Shown one piece after another: positions 3,057-61,576 of a stretch of 64,000 nt of DNA (its first letter is position 1; each line of letters begins with the position of its first letter). The notes beneath the pieces are model-generated. The model had not been told where the DNA came from, made no database searches, and worked only from the letters and a program-made list of their open reading frames with translations. This DNA is from an uncultured Candidatus Saccharibacteria bacterium (GTDB lineage: Bacteria; Patescibacteriota; Minisyncoccia; Phycocordibacterales; CALRHW01). The translations under genes and the position numbers were made by a program. The stretch spans positions 8,059 to 72,058 of the forward strand of contig CAYOUG010000001.1 in the NCBI GenBank assembly GCA_964407105.1, read 5' to 3'.

Positions 3057-4013
3057 ATGGTTGAATTTTTAAATACCCACAAAAACATGAAATACGACAA
3101 ACAATACCCCATTAAAATTCTACCGAAATCAGACTTTCCACCACTACTAAAACATATCAATGATCCGCCACAAACACTCTATATAAGAGGTGTTCTACCA
3201 AACGACCCAGAAACCAAATATCTTTGTGTGGTGGGTTCACGAGCATATACAAATTATGGAGAAGAAGTGTGTAAAACACTCATATCTGGCTTACGAGGAC
3301 AAAACATAATAATAGTATCTGGTCTTGCGCTTGGTATTGATTCAATCGCTCACCGCTCTGCACTCGATGCCAAACTTACCACTATTGCTGTACCGGGTTC
3401 TGGTTTAAATTCCCATGTGCTGTATCCGCGAGCAAACTGGCAATTAGCAGAAAAAATTCTTGATTCTGGTGGAGTAATCATTTCTGAAGAAGAACCCTCC
3501 TATCGCGCCACGCCGTATAGTTTTCCAAAACGCAACAGAATTATGGCGGGGATGTCTCATGCTGTGCTTGTTATAGAAGCCGAGCTTAAATCTGGCACAC
3601 TCATCACATCAAAATACGCAACAGAATACAATAGAGACGTTTTCACAGTCCCCGGCTCTATTTTTTCAAAAAAATCTGATGGGCCACACATGCTTCTAAG
3701 ACTGGGCGCTACACCCGTGAGAAAAAGTGATGATATTTTAGAAGCGCTTGGTTTCAGTGTTGAAGATGAAAATAAAAAAGAAAAAACACCGGAACAAATA
3801 CAAGCGCTTTATCAAAAAACTCTTACACTTTGCACACCCGACGAACGCGCCACGCTCAGCATTCTCGCCGACACATCTCATACGCGCGACGAACTCATTA
3901 GACTTCTCACAAAATCTCTTGAAAAACCAGTTTCAGAAATTACAGCATTACTCATGATGATGGAAATTAAAGATCTTATTGTTGAAAAAATGGGAGAAAT
4001 ATTTATAGTGTAA
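3057..4013 (+). CDS. dprA: DNA processing protein DprA (Smf)
   Basis: 318 aa; Rossmann-like DprA core (GSRAYTNYG...GLALGIDSIAHRSAL...VIEAELKSGTLITSKYA). Lies upstream of topA as in many bacteria. Confidence 0.88.
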   Translation: MVEFLNTHKNMKYDKQYPIKILPKSDFPPLLKHINDPPQTLYIRGVLPNDPETKYLCVVGSRAYTNYGEEVCKTLISGLRGQNIIIVSGLALGIDSIAHRSALDAKLTTIAVPGSGLNSHVLYPRANWQLAEKILDSGGVIISEEEPSYRATPYSFPKRNRIMAGMSHAVLVIEAELKSGTLITSKYATEYNRDVFTVPGSIFSKKSDGPHMLLRLGATPVRKSDDILEALGFSVEDENKKEKTPEQIQALYQKTLTLCTPDERATLSILADTSHTRDELIRLLTKSLEKPVSEITALLMMMEIKDLIVEKMGEIFIV

Positions 4014-28589: not shown

Positions 28590-28761
28590 GGATATATAGT
28601 AACACACCAATGTGTAGACTATTTCCACATAAAAGAAAAAGCCCTGCACGCGATGTACAGAGCTTCCATTGTTTACGTTTTGGAATACGTTGCGACAACA
28701 TTGTCGCGAAGGACTAAGGTCAAGGGTTCAAGAAGACCCAAGGTGACCGAAGTCCTGAGTA

Positions 28762-29385
28762 CTAACTTTCGAAGCGAGCTGCGAGGCTGCGGCCGTCCCA
28801 GACGCTGTCGAGCCTGTCCCAAGGCACCACCACCTGGTCGCCGTAGCCGTAAAAATACGGGACGCAGCGACGGCCGTAGCGATCGCGTACGACGCTCTTC
28901 CAGCAGAAGACGACCTTTTTCCCGAACCGTTTCCGGAAGGTCTTGATGTCCACCAGCTTGGCGATGGCAAGTGCGTCGTGGAGACCAAGACATGTCTTGA
29001 GCGTGCCATTCTGACCAAGATGGTCGTAGATGACGTCGCCAGTCGTAGTGCAGCCATCCTTCTGGTCGTTGTGGAGCCAGAGCTTAACCCGTGTAAGGTC
29101 GTACTCGGTTGGACCGACAGACTCCAATTCTGGATGGAGTACCTCCGTTACCCAGTTTGGGTAAACGGGACGAATGGAACGGTCGACGCGGATGAAGGTG
29201 TTAGACGGTTCTTGTTCAGACGATCCGCTAACGATACCCTGAAAGATGTTTACGATCTTCTCAGGGTCACGCTTGCCGTCCAAGACAAGCTTGTTGACTG
29301 TCGTCTGAAGCTTCCAAAGCCGTGAAATCACAGCCGCTTCAGCGATTTGATCCATATCTTCTTTCGTCATACCATTACTCATGGC
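28762..29385 (-). CDS. hypothetical protein in a ~65% GC island (likely horizontally acquired)
   Basis: Start taken at MSNGMTKEDMDQ, with aggggaaacgcc immediately upstream. No recognisable family. Confidence 0.5.
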   Translation of the reverse strand, partial: AMSNGMTKEDMDQIAEAAVISRLWKLQTTVNKLVLDGKRDPEKIVNIFQGIVSGSSEQEPSNTFIRVDRSIRPVYPNWVTEVLHPELESVGPTEYDLTRVKLWLHNDQKDGCTTTGDVIYDHLGQNGTLKTCLGLHDALAIAKLVDIKTFRKRFGKKVVFCWKSVVRDRYGRRCVPYFYGYGDQVVVPWDRLDSVWDGRSLAARFES

Positions 29386-29570
29386 GTTTCCCCTAAAAAG
29401 AGTTTGCCCGCTACTTACAGGCATCTGAAGGGACGTATGGTTCCACAATAGAGCCACTATGTCCGAACAATTCCATTAATTATTATAAACTTTTTTTAAA
29501 AAATGTCAATATATCTGAGTAACCATTCTTCTATTCCTCCCACATTCACTTTTTATGCTACAATTTTCTC

Positions 29571-44232: not shown

Positions 44233-46164
44233 ATGAAAGATGCATTTGAAGCGCAAACATCAAACAGCGCTATAGAAAAAGGTCCGATACAAACAGTCGG
44301 GCCAACAAAAGAAAATTCACCACAAAACCCAGCTGGTGAAGCACAAAGAAACAACAGCCGAGGAACTCGCCGACCAAACTCTTCTGGTATGGGACGTGGT
44401 GGTGGACATCGACGTATGGGCGGTATGCGACGCGACAGCTCCCCTCTTCGTGTAGCAAAAAAACAAGAAGACACCATTCCACCAATCGGTGAGAGTGTGC
44501 GTATTATTCCACTTGGAGGAGTAGAAGAAGTTGGAAAAAACATGACAGCAATTGAATACAAGGACGATATTATCGTTCTTGATATGGGTTTTGGTTTCAG
44601 TGAAGAAAACACACCGGGTGTAGACTACATTTTGCCAAATTCAAAATACTTAGAAGACAATAAACACAAAATTAAAGCCGTGGTTATCACTCACGGACAT
44701 CTCGACCATATCGGTGGAATTCCATACATCATGCCTAGAATAGGTAATCCGCCAATGTACACCCGAGAACTGACATCGATTATGATCAGAAAGCGACAAG
44801 AAGAATTTGCTCATCTGCCACCGCTAGATATTCGTGTTGTGGAAAAAGACGATCATATTCGCATCGGTAATTTACCTGTACGCTTTTTTGCAGTTACTCA
44901 CACCATTCCAGATTCAATGGGAGTAATCATTGAAACTCCTTACGGCTCTATCGTAAACGCAGGTGATCCAAAACTCGACCATGACGACGGCGTTCCTACA
45001 GACGCTGAACAAAACGAGTACAAAAAATTTGAAAAAGAAAAGGTACTTCTTTTTATGAACGATTCAACAAACGTTGAAAACCCAGGCTGGTCTACTCCCG
45101 AAAAACTCGTACATAAAAACCTTGAAGAAATCATAAAAAATATAAAAGGGAGAATAATTATTGGTACTTTTGCTTCCCAACTTGAACGTATCATTAAAAT
45201 TATCGAGATTGCAGAAATGTATGGCAAAAAAGTGGCGGTAGAAGGCCGAAGCATGAAAACCAACATTGAAGTAGCAAGACTTGCTAAAATGCTCAATGTT
45301 AAAAAAGAAACCATGATCCCTATTGAGGACGTGGAAAAATATCCGCCAGACAAAATCGTAATACTTGCCACTGGTGCTCAAGGTGAAGAGTTTGCCGCAC
45401 TTATGCGTATGGCAAACAAAACTCACAAAAATTTCCGCATCAACAAACGTGATACGGTTTTGCTTTCATCTTCAATCATTCCAGGTAACGAACGCACAGT
45501 ACAAAAACTAAAAGATAATATTGCTAGACAAGGTGCAAAAATAATTCACTATCGTACATCAGATGTGTATATTCATTCCACCGGTCACGGCAACAGAGCA
45601 GAATTAGAGTGGATGTTCAAAAAAATCAATCCAAAATTTTTCATGCCAATTCACGGCAATCACTACATGCTTCGTCTACATGCACAAACTATCGAAGCTC
45701 TTGGAATGCCAGAAGATCACATCATCATTCCTGACAACGGTTCTATTATCGAAATTCAAGAAGAAGGAACAAAACTTGTTCGTCTAAAAGAATCAGCTCC
45801 AAGCGGAATGATGATGGTGGATGGATTTTCTATCGGTGATATGCAAGAAGTGGTAATACGCGACCGAAAAATGCTTGCCGAAGATGGAATGTTTGTCATT
45901 ATCGCAAGTGTTAATTTAAAAACTGGAAAACTCAGAAAATCTCCCGATATTATTTCTCGAGGATTTGTGTATTTACGTGAATCTCAAGATCTTCTTCAAG
46001 ACGCACGACATATTATTAAAAAAAGTGTCGAGGACACAACGGTTGGAATGAACCCTATCAACTTTGATTACGTAAAAGCAAACATTACCGACGTGGTGAC
46101 TCGTTTTCTCTTTCAGAAAACCGCAAAAAAGCCTATTGTTATTCCTGTAGTGCTTGGAATGTAA
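44233..46164 (+). CDS. rnj: ribonuclease J (beta-CASP metallo-beta-lactamase) with Arg/Gly-rich N-terminal extension
   Basis: 643 aa; HGHLDHIGG motif and beta-CASP region; N-terminal ~85-aa RG-rich segment. Confidence 0.9.
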   Translation: MKDAFEAQTSNSAIEKGPIQTVGPTKENSPQNPAGEAQRNNSRGTRRPNSSGMGRGGGHRRMGGMRRDSSPLRVAKKQEDTIPPIGESVRIIPLGGVEEVGKNMTAIEYKDDIIVLDMGFGFSEENTPGVDYILPNSKYLEDNKHKIKAVVITHGHLDHIGGIPYIMPRIGNPPMYTRELTSIMIRKRQEEFAHLPPLDIRVVEKDDHIRIGNLPVRFFAVTHTIPDSMGVIIETPYGSIVNAGDPKLDHDDGVPTDAEQNEYKKFEKEKVLLFMNDSTNVENPGWSTPEKLVHKNLEEIIKNIKGRIIIGTFASQLERIIKIIEIAEMYGKKVAVEGRSMKTNIEVARLAKMLNVKKETMIPIEDVEKYPPDKIVILATGAQGEEFAALMRMANKTHKNFRINKRDTVLLSSSIIPGNERTVQKLKDNIARQGAKIIHYRTSDVYIHSTGHGNRAELEWMFKKINPKFFMPIHGNHYMLRLHAQTIEALGMPEDHIIIPDNGSIIEIQEEGTKLVRLKESAPSGMMMVDGFSIGDMQEVVIRDRKMLAEDGMFVIIASVNLKTGKLRKSPDIISRGFVYLRESQDLLQDARHIIKKSVEDTTVGMNPINFDYVKANITDVVTRFLFQKTAKKPIVIPVVLGM

Positions 46165-46193
46165 AGGAATACTCAAAAATAGATTACAAAAAA

Positions 46194-46230
46194 GCCCCCG
46201 CGACCGAAGTCGGGGGGGCGTTTGTTCTAC
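46194..46230. terminator. bidirectional Rho-independent terminator (gcccccgcgaccgaagtcgggggggc)
   Basis: GC hairpin with T-run on the plus side (end of rnj) and on the minus side (end of the GC-rich gene pair). Confidence 0.6.
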
Positions 46231-46275
46231 ACGACGCAACCGTCGTCTAGAACTCTCTGTTTTGTTGACTAGTCG

Positions 46276-46869
46276 TCAGTCCTCAGCCTGCGGCTTGGGC
46301 TTAGGCTTCGGTGCTGGCGTCGGTGGTGGTCCAGGTGGTGGACCGCCGCCAACCCAGAAACAAGTGCTGGCTGTGAGAGCGTCGCACTTTGTGCCATTGG
46401 TGCACATTGTCGTTGTGCAACCGAACGTGACACCGTCATGGCAATCACATGGTTGCATGAGCACAACGACCGTGCCTCCGGGTGCAGGCATCGAGACTCC
46501 ACCGATTGCTCCGGCGACAATCACGTTGTCGCCAAGGTCGATGTTGTACTCAAACACCTGCACGCCGTTTGGCAAGATTCCGAGTGTGCCAAACACCGAG
46601 ACAACCATTCCGCTGGAAGTGGGAACAGCTGTGTAGGAAAACTTGTTTCCTACAACGGTTTGTGTGACGACGAATTCTTGTTCGCCGACAACAACCGTGA
46701 TGTTTCCGCTCACATGAGCGACGGAAACATCCTCGAACGGCAATTCAAAGGAAGCCGTTTTTCCCGTCATCGCCTTGGCGATATCAAAGCCGTTTCCAGC
46801 AAACGCTGGAACGGTGGGGATCGCCATTGCAACAAGCAAGGCGACAAGGCTCATCATTTTCCTGATCAT
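46276..46869 (-). CDS. hypothetical secreted protein, Cys-rich, with C-terminal Pro/Lys-rich tail (GC-rich island)
   Basis: 197 aa; signal peptide MIRKMMSLVALLVAMAIPTVPAFA; C-terminus ...GGGPPPGPPPTPAPKPKPKPQAED. About 55% GC versus a ~37% background. Confidence 0.5.
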   Translation of the reverse strand: MIRKMMSLVALLVAMAIPTVPAFAGNGFDIAKAMTGKTASFELPFEDVSVAHVSGNITVVVGEQEFVVTQTVVGNKFSYTAVPTSSGMVVSVFGTLGILPNGVQVFEYNIDLGDNVIVAGAIGGVSMPAPGGTVVVLMQPCDCHDGVTFGCTTTMCTNGTKCDALTASTCFWVGGGPPPGPPPTPAPKPKPKPQAED

Positions 46870-46937
46870 TACTCACTCCTTTGTTTGGAGTTTTCCCGAC
46901 CGAAAAAAAACGCAATCCCCTCTCTAAATCAGTAGTT

Positions 46938-55064: not shown

Positions 55065-55242
55065 TTGCAAAATTGGTGCTGCCGATCAGGGACTCTCGGC
55101 TACCGCCGCGGGTGCTTTTCGGTCTCGCATGCGAGTACGCACACTCGACAACGAAAAGCCTTTCGAGTCCCTGACGAAAGTGCCGCGGGGCACTTTCTAT
55201 CGCCAGCACTCCGCTTCGCTACGTGCTGCCGATCAGGGACTC
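55065..55242. repeat. 20-bp direct repeats (gtgctgccgatcagggactc) duplicating the 3' end of tRNA-Gln, flanking ~140 bp of hairpin-rich DNA (att-like scar)
   Basis: Identical 20-mers at 55065-55084 and 55223-55242. The second is the 3' end of the tRNA gene. The interval has inverted repeats (cagggactc/gagtccctg; gaaagtgcc/ggcactttc). Confidence 0.6.
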
Positions 55243-55296
55243 GAACCCCAATTAACCGCTCCAGAGGCGGTCGTCCTACCATTAGACGAATCGGCA
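55226..55296 (-). tRNA. tRNA-Gln (anticodon CTG), U1-A72
   Basis: Reverse complement TGCCGATTCGTCTAATGGTAGGACGACCGCCTCTGGAGCGGTTAATTGGGGTTCGAGTCCCTGATCGGCAG. Anticodon loop CTCTGGA; a T-stem with two G-U pairs lowers confidence. Confidence 0.65.
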
Positions 55297-59183: not shown

Positions 59184-60059
59184 TTATAGACCCTTTTCAG
59201 CCTCAATAAATTCATCGAGTTCACCCCCCAATACTTTTTCAATATCTCTCACTTCTACTTCTGTACGGTGATCTTTTACCATTTGGTAAGGGTGCATCAC
59301 ATACGAGCGTATCTGACTTCCCCATTCATTTTGAGTTGTTTTACTTACATACATACCACTTTCCTTACTTTTTCTATCATCTTCTACCATTTTATAAAGT
59401 TTCCCACGCAAAATTTGCATTGCATGTTCACGATTTTGTGCCTGAGAACGCTCTGAATCTGCATGTACAGCAATACCGCTAGGAATATGCACCACCCGCA
59501 CCGCCGTCTCTCTTTTGTTTACATTTTGTCCACCCGGCCCACTTGAACGTGAAAACTCAAAACGAATATCGTCATCAGGAATATCCAAATCATCAAGTTT
59601 TTCAAATTTTGGAATTACTTCAACCATTGAAAAAGAGGTGTGTCGAAGTTTTTTTGCACTAAAAGGAGAAATGCGAACGAGCCGATGAACCCCAGATTCA
59701 TTTTTTAATGTTCCATAAACATTTTTTCCTATTATTTCAAGCATCACATTACGATAACCCCCGTGATCATTTTCATGTTTGTGTATAAAATTTACACTCC
59801 AATCGTGATTTTGAATATACTTCAAATACATTTCAAGAAGAATGTGCGTAAAATCTTCGGCGTCATCACCTCCAGCACCAGAAAAAATGGTCATGATGGC
59901 GTTACCTTTGTCGTATTTTCCCACCCCCCCAAGCTCATCTTTTAAAGTCTGAAGTTCTTTAATTATATTTTGCGCGAGAACCTTGTCGTTCCAAAAATCA
60001 GGCGCTAGCATACGCGCCTCAATTTCAGCAATTTTTTTCTCAATCTCTTCTTTCTGCAT
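59184..60059 (-). CDS. prfB: peptide chain release factor 2 (no programmed +1 frameshift site evident)
   Basis: SPF and GGQ motifs. The ORF starts in the region equivalent to post-frameshift E. coli RF2. No upstream CUU-UGA-C window was found. Confidence 0.88.
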   Translation of the reverse strand: MQKEEIEKKIAEIEARMLAPDFWNDKVLAQNIIKELQTLKDELGGVGKYDKGNAIMTIFSGAGGDDAEDFTHILLEMYLKYIQNHDWSVNFIHKHENDHGGYRNVMLEIIGKNVYGTLKNESGVHRLVRISPFSAKKLRHTSFSMVEVIPKFEKLDDLDIPDDDIRFEFSRSSGPGGQNVNKRETAVRVVHIPSGIAVHADSERSQAQNREHAMQILRGKLYKMVEDDRKSKESGMYVSKTTQNEWGSQIRSYVMHPYQMVKDHRTEVEVRDIEKVLGGELDEFIEAEKGL

Positions 60060-60130
60060 TGATACAGTGTAACAAAAAGATTACACAAAAGAAAAACCGG
60101 GCACCTTCGTGGGTGCCCGGCTGGATTGTC

Positions 60131-60415
60131 AGAAACGCTGTGTCTGTTCAGGTCATTGGATGGGAAACGTCCCCATGAACATCCATCCTAGCCGTGGTGC
60201 CAAATTGTTACCCCAAAACCCCCTTTGGGATCAGAGTTACTATCAAGCATGCCTACGGCATGTTGTTGCACTTTACGGACACACGCATCTCTGACAATCA
60301 ACACGGAGGATCTTGCGCCCTCTTTATGAGCCTTGCTTGGGAAGTCGCCGTCCGGGTCTAACCCTTTTAGCGCTTCGAGCTCTAAGGCCTACAGATTGCT
60401 CCATGTGAACCAACT
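60131..60415 (-). ncRNA. candidate ~285-nt structured ncRNA (GC ~50%), own promoter and terminator; identity unresolved
   Basis: Minus-strand TTGACA-16-TAGACT promoter (plus coordinates 60423-60450). Terminator hairpin ccgggcacc/ggtgcccgg plus T-run at 60095-60130. No ORF of 60 aa or more on either strand. No RNase P P4, tmRNA tag or SRP domain IV motifs recognised. Confidence 0.35.
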
Positions 60416-60460
60416 GAATACGAGTCTACACCCACAAAAAAACATGTCAAGTGGATATTG

Positions 60461-60533
60461 AGCCACCTCGCAGAATCGAACTGCGGACCCCCACTTTACG
60501 AAAGTGGTGCTCTACCAACTGAGCTAAGGTGGC
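60461..60533 (-). tRNA. tRNA-Thr (anticodon CGT)
   Basis: Reverse complement GCCACCTTAGCTCAGTTGGTAGAGCACCACTTTCGTAAAGTGG...GAGGTGGCT. Confidence 0.85.
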
Positions 60534-60624
60534 GTACATATTTTTTAAGGATACACAAAAAATAACATCTGTGCCATGCATAAAGCGTGCATTGCAAAAG
60601 AAAAAACTTTGACTTTTGTTGCGG

Positions 60625-60697
60625 AGCCGTTGTCCGGGATTGAACCGGAGACCTCGTCATTACCAATGACGTGCTCTACCAACTGAGCTACAACGGC
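60625..60697 (-). tRNA. tRNA-Thr (anticodon GGT)
   Basis: Reverse complement GCCGTTGTAGCTCAGTTGGTAGAGCACGTCATTGGTAATGACG...GACAACGGCT. Confidence 0.85.
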
Positions 60698-60811
60698 ACT
60701 AATTAGTATTTGTGAATCATACTACAGGGTACTTTTTTTTCAATCTTTAGGGATGAATACTTTAGGAAAACTTTAGCACTTCTTGAGCCGTTGTTTTGTA
60801 ATATATATCCA

Positions 60812-61576
60812 ATGGCGAAATACCAAAAAAAACTCATAGCGATCGAACTCAGGAAAAAAGGACTGAGTATTAATGCTATTGCTAAAAAACTTGATATTTC
60901 AAAAGGAACGGTTAGCTTGTGGTGTAAAGATATGAAACTTACAGAAGAACAAAAAAATGTTTTAAAACAAAATACTATAAAAGCTGGTCATAAAGGCAGA
61001 AGTCTGGGAACAGAAAAACAAAAAAAGAAAAAATTGGATATTGTAAATTTTTATAATAACCTTGCAGAAAAAGATGTTGGGGCACTTTCCAATCGAGATT
61101 TTTTACTTATTGCTGCCGCGCTGTATTGGGGAGAAGGAAGTAAAACCAGCAACAGATTTATTTTTGTGAATTCAGACCCAAACATGATTAAATGTATGTA
61201 TATTTTTTTAACAGAAGTGTTAAAAATTGATAAAAATGACATACGACCCACCATACAAATAAACGAAATCCATCGACCACGTATCGACAAGGTCTTAACT
61301 TTTTGGCATATTTTGCTACAATTACCACTTAGTAGCTTCAATAAACCATATTATGTAAAGACCCCACAAAGAAAAGTCTATGCAAACTATGATTCATATT
61401 ATGGAGTACTAAGACTTAAGATCTTGAAGGGATCACGCATACAGTATAGAATACTGGGTCTTATTAAAGCATTATGTCGAGGTAGCTCAATGGTGGAGCA
61501 GTCGTTTCATAAGCGACAGGATATGGGTTCGACTCCCATCCTCGACACTATTTCAGATAATGATTTAGTGTATTGA
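60812..61576 (+). CDS. HTH + LAGLIDADG-like (single-motif) endonuclease-fold protein; the ORF reads through the tRNA-Met gene
   Basis: N-terminal HTH (KGLSINAIAKKLDISKGTVSLW). FLLIAAALYWGEGSKTSNRFIFVNSD resembles LAGLIDADG (GEG in place of DGDG). No in-frame stop until 61576, so the last ~33 codons overlap the tRNA-Met at 61476-61547. Confidence 0.35.
   Translation: MAKYQKKLIAIELRKKGLSINAIAKKLDISKGTVSLWCKDMKLTEEQKNVLKQNTIKAGHKGRSLGTEKQKKKKLDIVNFYNNLAEKDVGALSNRDFLLIAAALYWGEGSKTSNRFIFVNSDPNMIKCMYIFLTEVLKIDKNDIRPTIQINEIHRPRIDKVLTFWHILLQLPLSSFNKPYYVKTPQRKVYANYDSYYGVLRLKILKGSRIQYRILGLIKALCRGSSMVEQSFHKRQDMGSTPILDTISDNDLVY
61476..61547 (+). tRNA. tRNA-Met (anticodon CAT; elongator Met or Ile2/lysidine type, not initiator-like)
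   Basis: GTCGAGGTAGCTCAATGGTGGAGCAGTCGTTTCATAAGCGACAGGATATGGGTTCGACTCCCATCCTCGACA. Lacks the three G-C pairs that mark an initiator anticodon stem. Confidence 0.8.

Follow-up and report, generated by a model that had tools for sequence, protein, structure and literature searches.

A candidate orphan structured RNA in a hypervariable slot between the tRNA-Thr genes and prfB of a Paceibacteria (Parcubacteria) clade

A non-coding unit between tRNA-Thr and prfB

The window analysed here is the whole of a 64,000-nucleotide (nt) stretch of contig CAYOUG010000001.1, from an uncultured bacterium, and our subject is the slot on its minus strand that lies between two tRNA-Thr genes and prfB, the gene of release factor 2 (Table 1). 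This slot holds a unit of ~325 nt (60090-60416, minus), which may be an independent gene for a structured RNA. The initial annotation of this DNA had described a GC-rich noncoding minus-strand unit downstream of two tRNA-Thr genes, preceded by a TTGACA-16-TAGACT promoter and followed, just before the prfB start, by a hairpin and a U-run. All of these elements were recovered: both tRNA genes were found again, the GC content of the body is 0.51-0.53 vs 0.39 for the window, the promoter was located at 60450-60423, and the hairpin lies ahead of the prfB ATG at 60059.

The promoter, which is of the sigma-70 type, begins 10 nt past the 3' end of tRNA-Thr(CGU), and the predicted 5' end of the RNA falls near 60416, ~7 nt past the -10 element. 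At the other end, the terminator hairpin AGCCGGGCACC/GGTGCCCGGTT (60122-60095), followed by TTTCTTTTGT, is the top terminator-like site within the 7.5 kb scanned. The promoter match is not significant alone, as the same scan found 24 promoter-like sites vs 17.9 expected. Nevertheless, weak as it is by itself, this promoter is kept in L164, the closest other relative (CACTTGACA...GGTGTAGnnTCG; L-numbers denote the loci fetched from relatives), while the body of the L164 RNA is unalignable.

Table 1. Features of the tRNA-Thr/prfB slot and of its surroundings, in window coordinates.
Feature	Position	Strand	Basis or remark
tRNA-Thr(GGU)	60697-60623	minus	ARAGORN and Rfam
tRNA-Thr(CGU), upstream edge of the variable slot	60533-60460	minus	ARAGORN and Rfam
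RNA-unit promoter (-35 TTGACA 60450-60445; 16-nt spacer; -10 TAGACT 60428-60423)	60423-60450	minus	10/12 match to consensus
RNA body, ~294 nt, GC 0.52	60123-60416	minus	No credible open reading frame; predicted fold
Domain D1 of the predicted fold	60406-60301	minus	Single-sequence minimum free energy prediction
D1 apical hairpin GGG-UUAGA-CCC	60354-60364	minus	Read from the sequence and the minimum free energy fold
Small hairpin GAGGGCGCAAGAUCCUC(CG), sole variable spot of the body between strains	60304-60322	minus	Hairpin scan and strain comparison
Domain D2 of the predicted fold	60299-60124	minus	Single-sequence minimum free energy prediction
Intrinsic terminator (11-bp stem with 8 G-C pairs, 6-nt loop, U-rich tail)	60085-60122	minus	Terminator scan
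prfB promoter, extended -10 TGT-TACACT, 6 nt ahead of the ATG at 60059	60066-60074	minus	Motif conserved in relatives
prfB (release factor 2, 291 aa, no frameshift site), downstream edge of the slot	59184-60059	minus	TIGR00020 prfB, E = 6e-104
Open reading frame of a helix-turn-helix (HTH) protein	60812-61576	plus	N-terminal HTH_23 (Pfam) only, plus a weak IS630/TnsD-like signal
tRNA-Gln	55225-55296	minus	Anchor of a 127-nt insert

Predicted fold and coding potential

For the unit, a minimum free energy (MFE) of -136.6 kcal/mol was computed (z = -5.7 relative to dinucleotide shuffles), and it remains low when the terminator is left out (-114 kcal/mol, z = -5.3); six coding segments of the same length, taken as controls, gave z from -1.3 to +1.3. 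Folding is more favourable on the minus strand than on the plus strand (z of -4.9 vs -3.4) and only on the minus strand is the hairpin followed at its 3' side by a U-run, both of which fit transcription of the minus strand. In the predicted MFE structure, which consists of two domains, D2 (175 nt) is closed by a 21-bp helix (GAUUGUCAGAGAUGC.GUGUGUC / GACACAGCGUUUCUGACAAUC) and is loosely paired at its centre.

Regarding the coding potential, the initial annotation had stated that no open reading frame (ORF) exceeds 60 aa. A 61-codon GTG ORF is present on the plus strand (60109-60294), which slightly corrects that statement, while the absence of a protein-like ORF holds: among the ORFs of at least 20 aa in the unit none has a start context or a protein-like character, and no convincing leaderless start context was found inside it. 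A real coding sequence missed at first reading, which the annotation had named as a way to overturn its view, did not emerge either, as no convincing one was found. From the modelled structure and these scans, the minus strand of 60090-60416 is thus described as a non-coding unit that is predicted to fold well.

The same slot in related genomes

A total of 190 loci was fetched with prfB as anchor. The closest relatives in the prfB scans of genomes and metagenomes were at 79% and 68%, and the protein database provided one at 85%. In the clade characterized by a short, unframeshifted prfB, many of the sampled genomes present a non-coding unit of 250-450 nt upstream of prfB. Every one of these positional counterparts ends in a comparable hairpin and U run; -35/-10 pairs, read by eye, precede most of the units examined, that of L185 being unclear; and their folds give z from -1.8 to -4.5 against shuffles. 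The arrangement is variable. Two different units stand in tandem in L168 and L184, and the upstream neighbour of the unit in L001, L026, and L169 is a protein-coding gene instead of a tRNA. The slot lacks a unit in L175, L189, L190, L006, and L007, in most of which the tRNA-Thr 3' end abuts the prfB start codon; this is probably the ancestral arrangement.

The bodies of these units diverge to an extent that their flanks do not. Searches of the window unit with nhmmer and blastn against the 190 loci and the window only retrieved near-identical strain copies. The prfB proteins of the window and L164 are 85% identical and the RNA promoter, the terminator tail, and the prfB promoter are all kept between them, while the RNA bodies are unalignable. 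The same is observed at shorter distances: L002 and L004 have prfB proteins that are 93.5% identical and unrelated RNA bodies, and L177 and L185, with 86% identity at prfB third positions and flanks that are 95-99% identical, have bodies at random similarity. In this last pair, the 99% homology stops at the tRNA-Thr(CGU) 3' end, where the variable segment starts. Pairwise local alignments of the allele bodies were at the level of shuffles except for L002/L184 (z = 28), with marginal values for L002/L003 (z = 3.0) and for the tandem pair L168a/L168b (z = 2.3). The units of L002 and L184 are homologous, although their prfB proteins are only 89% identical. Within one strain-level lineage an allele can also be stable: contigs of at least nine samples carry the L177 allele with 99.8-100% identity.

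L185 and L193 provide an intermediate case. In prfB they agree at 93% of third positions (97.4% of all nt), and in the bodies at 54% of aligned columns, with shared blocks comprising an AUUAGAYACC hairpin, GGUAC-GAGUGA-GUGCC, a GUGGCGAARUUU loop, GUC-GAAA-GAC, and GGGGAACAGACU. The stems around these shared loops differ, and 8/44 pairs are altered on both sides. The AUUAGAYACC hairpin is found in L177 (1109-1123), L185 (~1138-1156), and L193 (~246-262), in different stems and within bodies ranging from random similarity to 54% identity. Its loop equals the 790 loop of 16S rRNA (15/15 to Escherichia coli 16S in L177 and 17/20 in L193), a match that is not significant alone, since 3/30 shuffles score equal or higher. 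The window body presents only loose echoes of the L185/L193 loops, namely GAACAGAC and the GGG-UUAGA-CCC hairpin of D1, whose loose resemblance to the AUUAGAYACC hairpin of L177/L185/L193 is without statistical support and is taken as a lead only.

Two covariance models were built from these alleles. The first, R1 (L002/L184; a 5' domain of 30 bp with P1 CCAG/CUGG, P2, and a three-way junction), retrieved only its two sources in 130 kb including the window. The second, R2 (L185/L193), gave no match on window 59800-60700 with filters off, the best score being 4.9 bits on the wrong strand. Both models also miss L177.

Judged from these alignments, the pattern is one of constraint inside an allele lineage and of replacement or very fast divergence between lineages, with no sign of ongoing hypermutation.

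Signs of selection on the RNA

The closest strains allow the unit to be compared with its neighbouring gene. Between the window and L161, prfB presents 12 differences, all synonymous, equivalent to 4.1% of third positions, and the 293-nt body presents four, at 60313, 60312, 60307, and 60304, with none in the other 283 nt. L162 adds one further change, in the same hairpin (60304-60322). In the terminator stem, L161 and L162 share a compensatory G-C to A-U replacement at 60117/60100.

Among more distant pairs, the units of L003 and L026 are 84% identical vs 76% at prfB third positions; out of 69 predicted pairs, none is broken, 8 carry one-sided compatible changes and 1 is changed on both sides, and a 13-nt indel falls in an apical loop. 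In the 5' domain of L002 and L184, 30/30 pairs are kept, 6 of them altered on both sides, and controls slid by 1-3 columns give 20-43% pairing vs the 100% observed. These covariation counts come from two sequences each, with structures predicted from those same sequences, and are consequently inflated and indicative only. Within these limits, the comparisons are indicative of selection keeping the modelled RNA fold within an allele lineage and of an RNA that evolves more slowly than synonymous sites.

The putative prfB promoter and probable leaderless expression

Upstream of prfB, TGTTACACT is followed by 6 nt and the ATG. The TGnTAnACT motif is found 6-11 nt ahead of the prfB ATG in the window, L001-L004, L026, L088, L164, L168, L177, and L185, and in at least 10 relatives this extended -10 element always lies downstream of the terminator. 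A Shine-Dalgarno-like sequence precedes only 4/53 long ORFs of the window, across which 20 sites of the TGnTAnnnT-N5-8-ATG type were found, which suggests that leaderless mRNAs transcribed from putative extended -10 promoters are widespread in this genome.

Since prfB seems to possess its own leaderless promoter past the terminator, the unit is probably no prfB leader and would form a separate transcription unit. The idea of a 5' leader or attenuator of prfB (riboswitch-like, T-box-like or protein-dependent), replacing autoregulation by +1 frameshifting, does find some basis at this locus: the gene that comes right after this structured RNA of ~300 nt and its terminator encodes a translation factor, and the 291-aa prfB of this clade lacks the +1 frameshift site, whereas more distant Parcubacteria (L009-L011, at ~2700-2800) keep the CUU-UGA. 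The conserved leaderless promoter between terminator and ATG, the lack of a conserved core across alleles, a T-box string at the level of shuffles, the absence of any Rfam riboswitch, and a complementarity to tRNA-Thr that is not above chance make this idea highly improbable.

Start codons close to tRNA 3' ends are another feature of these genomes. In the window, two start codons lie 0-7 nt past a tRNA 3' end (38006/38009 and 11420/11422; tRNA-Ser then ATG, and tRNA-Tyr then ATG), and in relatives the prfB ATG comes right after the tRNA-Thr(CGU) 3' end (L190 1500/1501, L006 949/950, L175 ~1497). Therefore, tRNA 3' processing could release leaderless mRNAs. In L189, which has no RNA unit, the prfB-ftsE spacer (2376-2598) and the ftsE-ftsX spacer (3278-3462) each contain a TATAAT-type promoter-like site and a long-range hairpin (for example GACCCCGCTCGAGTTTTG...CAAAACTCGAGCGGGGTT); these spacers may be further small structured modules between genes.

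These arrangements bear on the main alternative, an unlikely one, in which the module is a cis element and the RNA its by-product. It would uncouple prfB from the tRNA operon and may pass RNA polymerase, once terminated, on to the weak promoter of prfB ~30 nt further on, the fold serving clean termination and a harmless transcript. Indeed, in relatives without a unit the tRNA-Thr(CGU) 3' end lies 0-7 nt from the prfB start codon, so that prfB is probably co-transcribed with the tRNAs there, and all the unit-bearing genomes examined present the terminator followed by the prfB-specific extended -10. The flanks (terminator tail and prfB promoter) are conserved and the bodies interchangeable, and the L189 spacers present similar modules of promoter and long hairpin. 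However, a by-product would not hold 283 nt constant while synonymous sites shift by 4%, nor would it preserve helices through double changes; a terminator and a promoter need ~60 nt, not 250-450 nt of GC-rich structure; and the tandem units of L168 and L184 give no extra insulation.

Comparison with known RNA families

The 4227 families of Rfam 15 were searched at the gathering score and then at E<=10 on 701 nt (59900-60600). At the gathering score only the tRNAs were found, and at E<=10 nothing credible appeared in 59900-60600, with no family in the unit; the Rfam scan proposed by the initial annotation thus assigned none. The covariance models of ROOL, GOLLD, OLE, raiA, HEARO, and other large non-coding RNAs had no match in the unit in this search. 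Likewise, the units at the counterpart loci of relatives had no Rfam match, ten loci searched at E<=5 giving only tRNAs and scattered chance matches.

The families that its size and location bring to mind were considered individually. For RNase P RNA (RF00010/RF00011) there was no Rfam match, and CR-I (GAGGAAAGUCCGGGC) and CR-V (ACAGAAcccGGCUUA), the strands of P4, were found at best with 6/15 mismatches, as in shuffles. For tmRNA (RF00023 and permuted forms), ARAGORN reported only tRNAs, Rfam had no match, and the T-arm and 5' consensus scored at shuffle level. For the RNA of the signal recognition particle (SRP; 4.5S or Bacillus type), no Rfam match was obtained and the domain IV string had 9/20 mismatches, again as in shuffles. 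The absence of the diagnostic motifs of these three RNAs, as initially reported, is therefore borne out. The T-box leader (RF00230) had no Rfam match, 8/18 mismatches to the T-box string as in shuffles, and chance-level complementarity to tRNA-Thr. The group I intron (RF00028) also had no Rfam match, and the unit sits between genes with its own promoter and terminator; the Rfam negative is weak alone, since the same model also misses the intervening sequence in the L164 tRNA-Thr(GGU).

A highly divergent RNase P RNA, tmRNA or SRP RNA, or a small protein gene, is given almost no credence here. The size and position beside tRNAs would suit the former, and a 29-codon basic ORF starting near the predicted 5' end of the unit the latter. 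ARAGORN, Rfam, and the hallmark strings were all negative, the alleles are not homologous to each other, and the slot is empty in some relatives. The ORFs, for their part, are short, vary from one allele to the next, and are not preceded by the start context of the leaderless genes of this genome. More generally, the replacement by unrelated sequence, the doubling, and the absence in close relatives would not be expected of an essential housekeeping RNA.

6S RNA is the only housekeeping class without conserved sequence, and Ms1 of actinobacteria measures ~300 nt. A 6S-like or Ms1-like RNA binding RNA polymerase would agree with the strong promoter of stable-RNA type, with a structure that is kept without sequence conservation, and with the predicted D2, its 21-bp closing helix and partly open middle. 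The 6S covariance model (RF00013) nevertheless had no match in the 701 nt at E<=10, and the MFE structure of the window RNA, a single-sequence prediction only, seems to consist of two domains and not of a rod with paired 5'/3' ends and a central bubble; the other alleles are also predicted to be multi-branched, with 2-3 domains. A global regulator that is missing from close relatives, doubled in others, and swapped for unrelated sequence within a species-level cluster would be unexpected. We regard this possibility as very unlikely.

Other relationships were also searched. No unit has overall similarity to the 16S/23S of E. coli, and collinear motifs of the 690/720/770 regions, seen by eye, were unsupported when tested. 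The unit is no more complementary to the adjacent tRNA-Thr genes than expected by chance, and sense or antisense matches elsewhere in the window are at chance level. Phage and plasmid collections gave no match to the unit. An exact-word scan of IMG/VR returned one 22-nt match (window 60257-60278 = L192 3873-3894), which encodes AVKCNNMP in the pyridoxal phosphate (PLP)-lysine motif region of an ornithine-decarboxylase-like ORF; with no extended similarity, it was taken as chance.

By these sequence and covariance searches, the predicted RNA belongs to no described family. The initial annotation had left two readings, an unclassified structured RNA or a highly divergent RNase P, tmRNA, SRP or 6S RNA; the first is retained, with a promoter and terminator of its own, and the second is not.

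Mobile-type features near the tRNA genes

The tRNA-Thr genes of several relatives are interrupted or accompanied by genes of mobile type. In L003, L164, and L185, the anticodon loop of tRNA-Thr(GGU) contains an intervening sequence of ~200 nt (L164 573-846, L003 ~300-555, L185 ~190-430), which is conserved and is not recognised by ARAGORN or by the Rfam group I model, even at E<=10. The cluster of L185 contains a homing endonuclease (PADLOC HEase, E = 4e-10), and L026 a reverse transcriptase of 352 aa (13-1071; RVT_1, best PADLOC DRT model UG17), located ~215 nt upstream of the RNA unit. The reverse transcriptase is missing from the sister genome L003, whose RNA allele is the same, indicating that enzyme and allele are not obligately linked. 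In the window, the ORF of the HTH protein is divergent from the tRNA-Thr genes and its 3' end overruns a tRNA-Met (61476-61548), which may mean that the ORF is broken or wrongly delimited. A tRNA cluster with mobile-type genes fits a recombination hot spot, where alleles may be exchanged via the conserved flanks.

Elsewhere in the window, the last 20 nt of tRNA-Gln (GAGTCCCTGATCGGCAGCAC) are perfectly duplicated 147 nt downstream, start to start (55076-55242, minus). The 127-nt insert between these repeats has a GC of 0.61 and an MFE z = -6.3 and contains the complement of the tRNA T-arm 3' strand. Its sequence is suggestive of an element that integrated at the tRNA 3' end and of which a scar or a reduced form is left.

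Several further irregularities were recorded. L006 presents a different interrupted tRNA, with a group I intron recognised by Rfam (384-578). Tandem partial tRNA-Thr 5' halves (GCCGTTGTAGCTGTCTTGGTAGTAATGCAC...) stand ahead of the intact gene in L002 (2340-2470) and L003 (256-300), and in L083 (1940-2300) a tRNA is seemingly split around another tRNA-Thr gene. The window also contains two coding islands (28650-29460 and 46150-46870) with a GC of 0.55-0.60 vs 0.39 for the genome, one with a 231-aa ORF and the other encoding a 197-aa protein whose N-terminus is hydrophobic (by eye a signal peptide) and whose tail is rich in proline; a foreign origin is probable for both.

The unit itself could be what remains of small mobile or integrative elements with the 3' side of tRNA genes as their target, or have been carried by them, and would then be selfish or without effect on the host. 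The exact start of the variable segment at the tRNA-Thr(CGU) 3' end in L177 vs L185, the presence, absence, and replacement of units among near-identical genomes, the insert at tRNA-Gln in the same window, and the intervening sequences, homing endonuclease, and reverse transcriptase of the relatives' cluster would all agree with such an origin. We consider it doubtful, as the unit is not bordered by terminal repeats, direct or inverted, no second copy exists in the 64-kb window or the 190 loci, the phage, plasmid, and IMG/VR collections yield only the chance 22-mer, and the promoter is conserved across species, with a body under purifying selection.

Interpretation

The explanation that we favour, with a confidence only slightly better than even, is that an independent gene in the slot encodes a structured orphan RNA of ~325 nt that is restricted to its lineage, would act through its fold, and would represent one allele of a hypervariable slot at a recombination hot spot. 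Transcription would start at a promoter of stable-RNA type (-35 and -10) directly after tRNA-Thr(CGU), and the transcript would fold into a very stable GC-rich structure and stop at the strong intrinsic terminator; prfB would start from its own leaderless promoter ~30 nt further on. The slot would thus be a hypervariable RNA locus of one Paceibacteria (Parcubacteria) clade, whose alleles would have been replaced or have diverged past recognition between lineages, probably by recombination through the conserved flanks. With no conserved sequence, no long single-stranded seeds, and no complementarity to its neighbours, such an RNA may act in trans by its shape, binding or sequestering a protein or serving as a decoy (following the logic of 6S, Y or CsrB RNAs), and not by a conserved sequence or seed.

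Several points weigh against this explanation and must be considered together. The transcript ends are predicted from the sequence, and the trans role is a proposal. The window allele is known only from near-identical strain variants, so that its fold is a single-sequence prediction, and the covariation of other alleles is inflated in the manner noted above. Shared k-mers and enriched motifs across 14 alleles were limited to the terminator tails, with no conserved motif, and both covariance models miss the window RNA, which may have no more than the slot in common with the other units; homology to them, and hence a shared function, would be tentative. A cis role, in which the unit would shield prfB from the tRNA operon or supply the prfB promoter with RNA polymerase, also fits the position of the unit and the conservation of its promoter and terminator.

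The same variability could be interpreted as the outcome of diversifying selection acting on a structured RNA at this locus. Strongly transcribed RNAs would keep a few loops and their helices while the turnover of their sequence is at least sevenfold that of synonymous sites, or ancient alleles would be swapped. The RNA would then be a molecule of conflict or recognition: it might act against a phage or toxin nuclease, as a decoy or as an immunity RNA, or it might serve an episymbiont in recognising its partner. This interpretation is rather unlikely in our view.

The comparison with known systems places the putative orphan RNA gene between several of them. Like 6S RNA (ssrS) and Ms1, it would be a stand-alone RNA with a strong promoter and an intrinsic terminator, a fold kept while the sequence drifts, and a size near that of Ms1, all of this being read here from the DNA; in contrast to them, its predicted folds form no rod with a bubble, it has no Rfam 6S match, and it is accessory in close relatives. 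ROOL and GOLLD often adjoin tRNA genes, and together with raiA and OLE they are large GC-rich structured RNAs whose function is unclear or just emerging, a description that would also apply here. However, those RNAs have conserved cores in Rfam, and the present units are shorter (250-450 nt) and have no common motif. Orphan small RNAs in tRNA-adjacent islands share the lineage-restricted distribution, the (here predicted) independent transcription, and the polymorphism of presence and absence, but the RNA described here would be much longer and more fully paired than seed-pairing small RNAs, with no above-chance complementarity to tRNAs or the window. RNAs from tRNA spacers or trailers, such as the 3'ETS-leuZ sponge, also lie directly downstream of a tRNA on the same strand; here the unit has its own conserved promoter, and in L001, L026, and L169 no tRNA lies upstream. 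T-box and other terminator-based leaders resemble it as structured RNAs of ~300 nt with a terminator upstream of a translation gene, and differ from it in that it has no T-box sequence or specifier logic and no ligand-binding core, and in that prfB has its own promoter. Lastly, the start codons abutting tRNA 3' ends in this clade, with seemingly leaderless mRNAs, recall the tRNA punctuation of mitochondria.

Significance

Bacteria of the Candidate Phyla Radiation (CPR) have tiny genomes and few known regulators, and a search of the literature on their non-coding RNAs found nothing relevant; to our knowledge, almost nothing is known of them. A mitochondrion-like tRNA punctuation is suggested for this clade. 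At the locus described here, a promoter of consensus type and 250-450 nt of costly GC-rich structure are spent on an RNA without a family, and its evolution is unusual, as constraint inside an allele lineage is combined with wholesale replacement between near-identical genomes. A trans function, if true, would make this a new class of RNA confined to these organisms. Should the turnover be due to diversifying selection, bacteria would here offer a rare example of an arms race at the RNA level; the locus would be to RNA what hypervariable loci are to proteins, and a system of a type so far undescribed.

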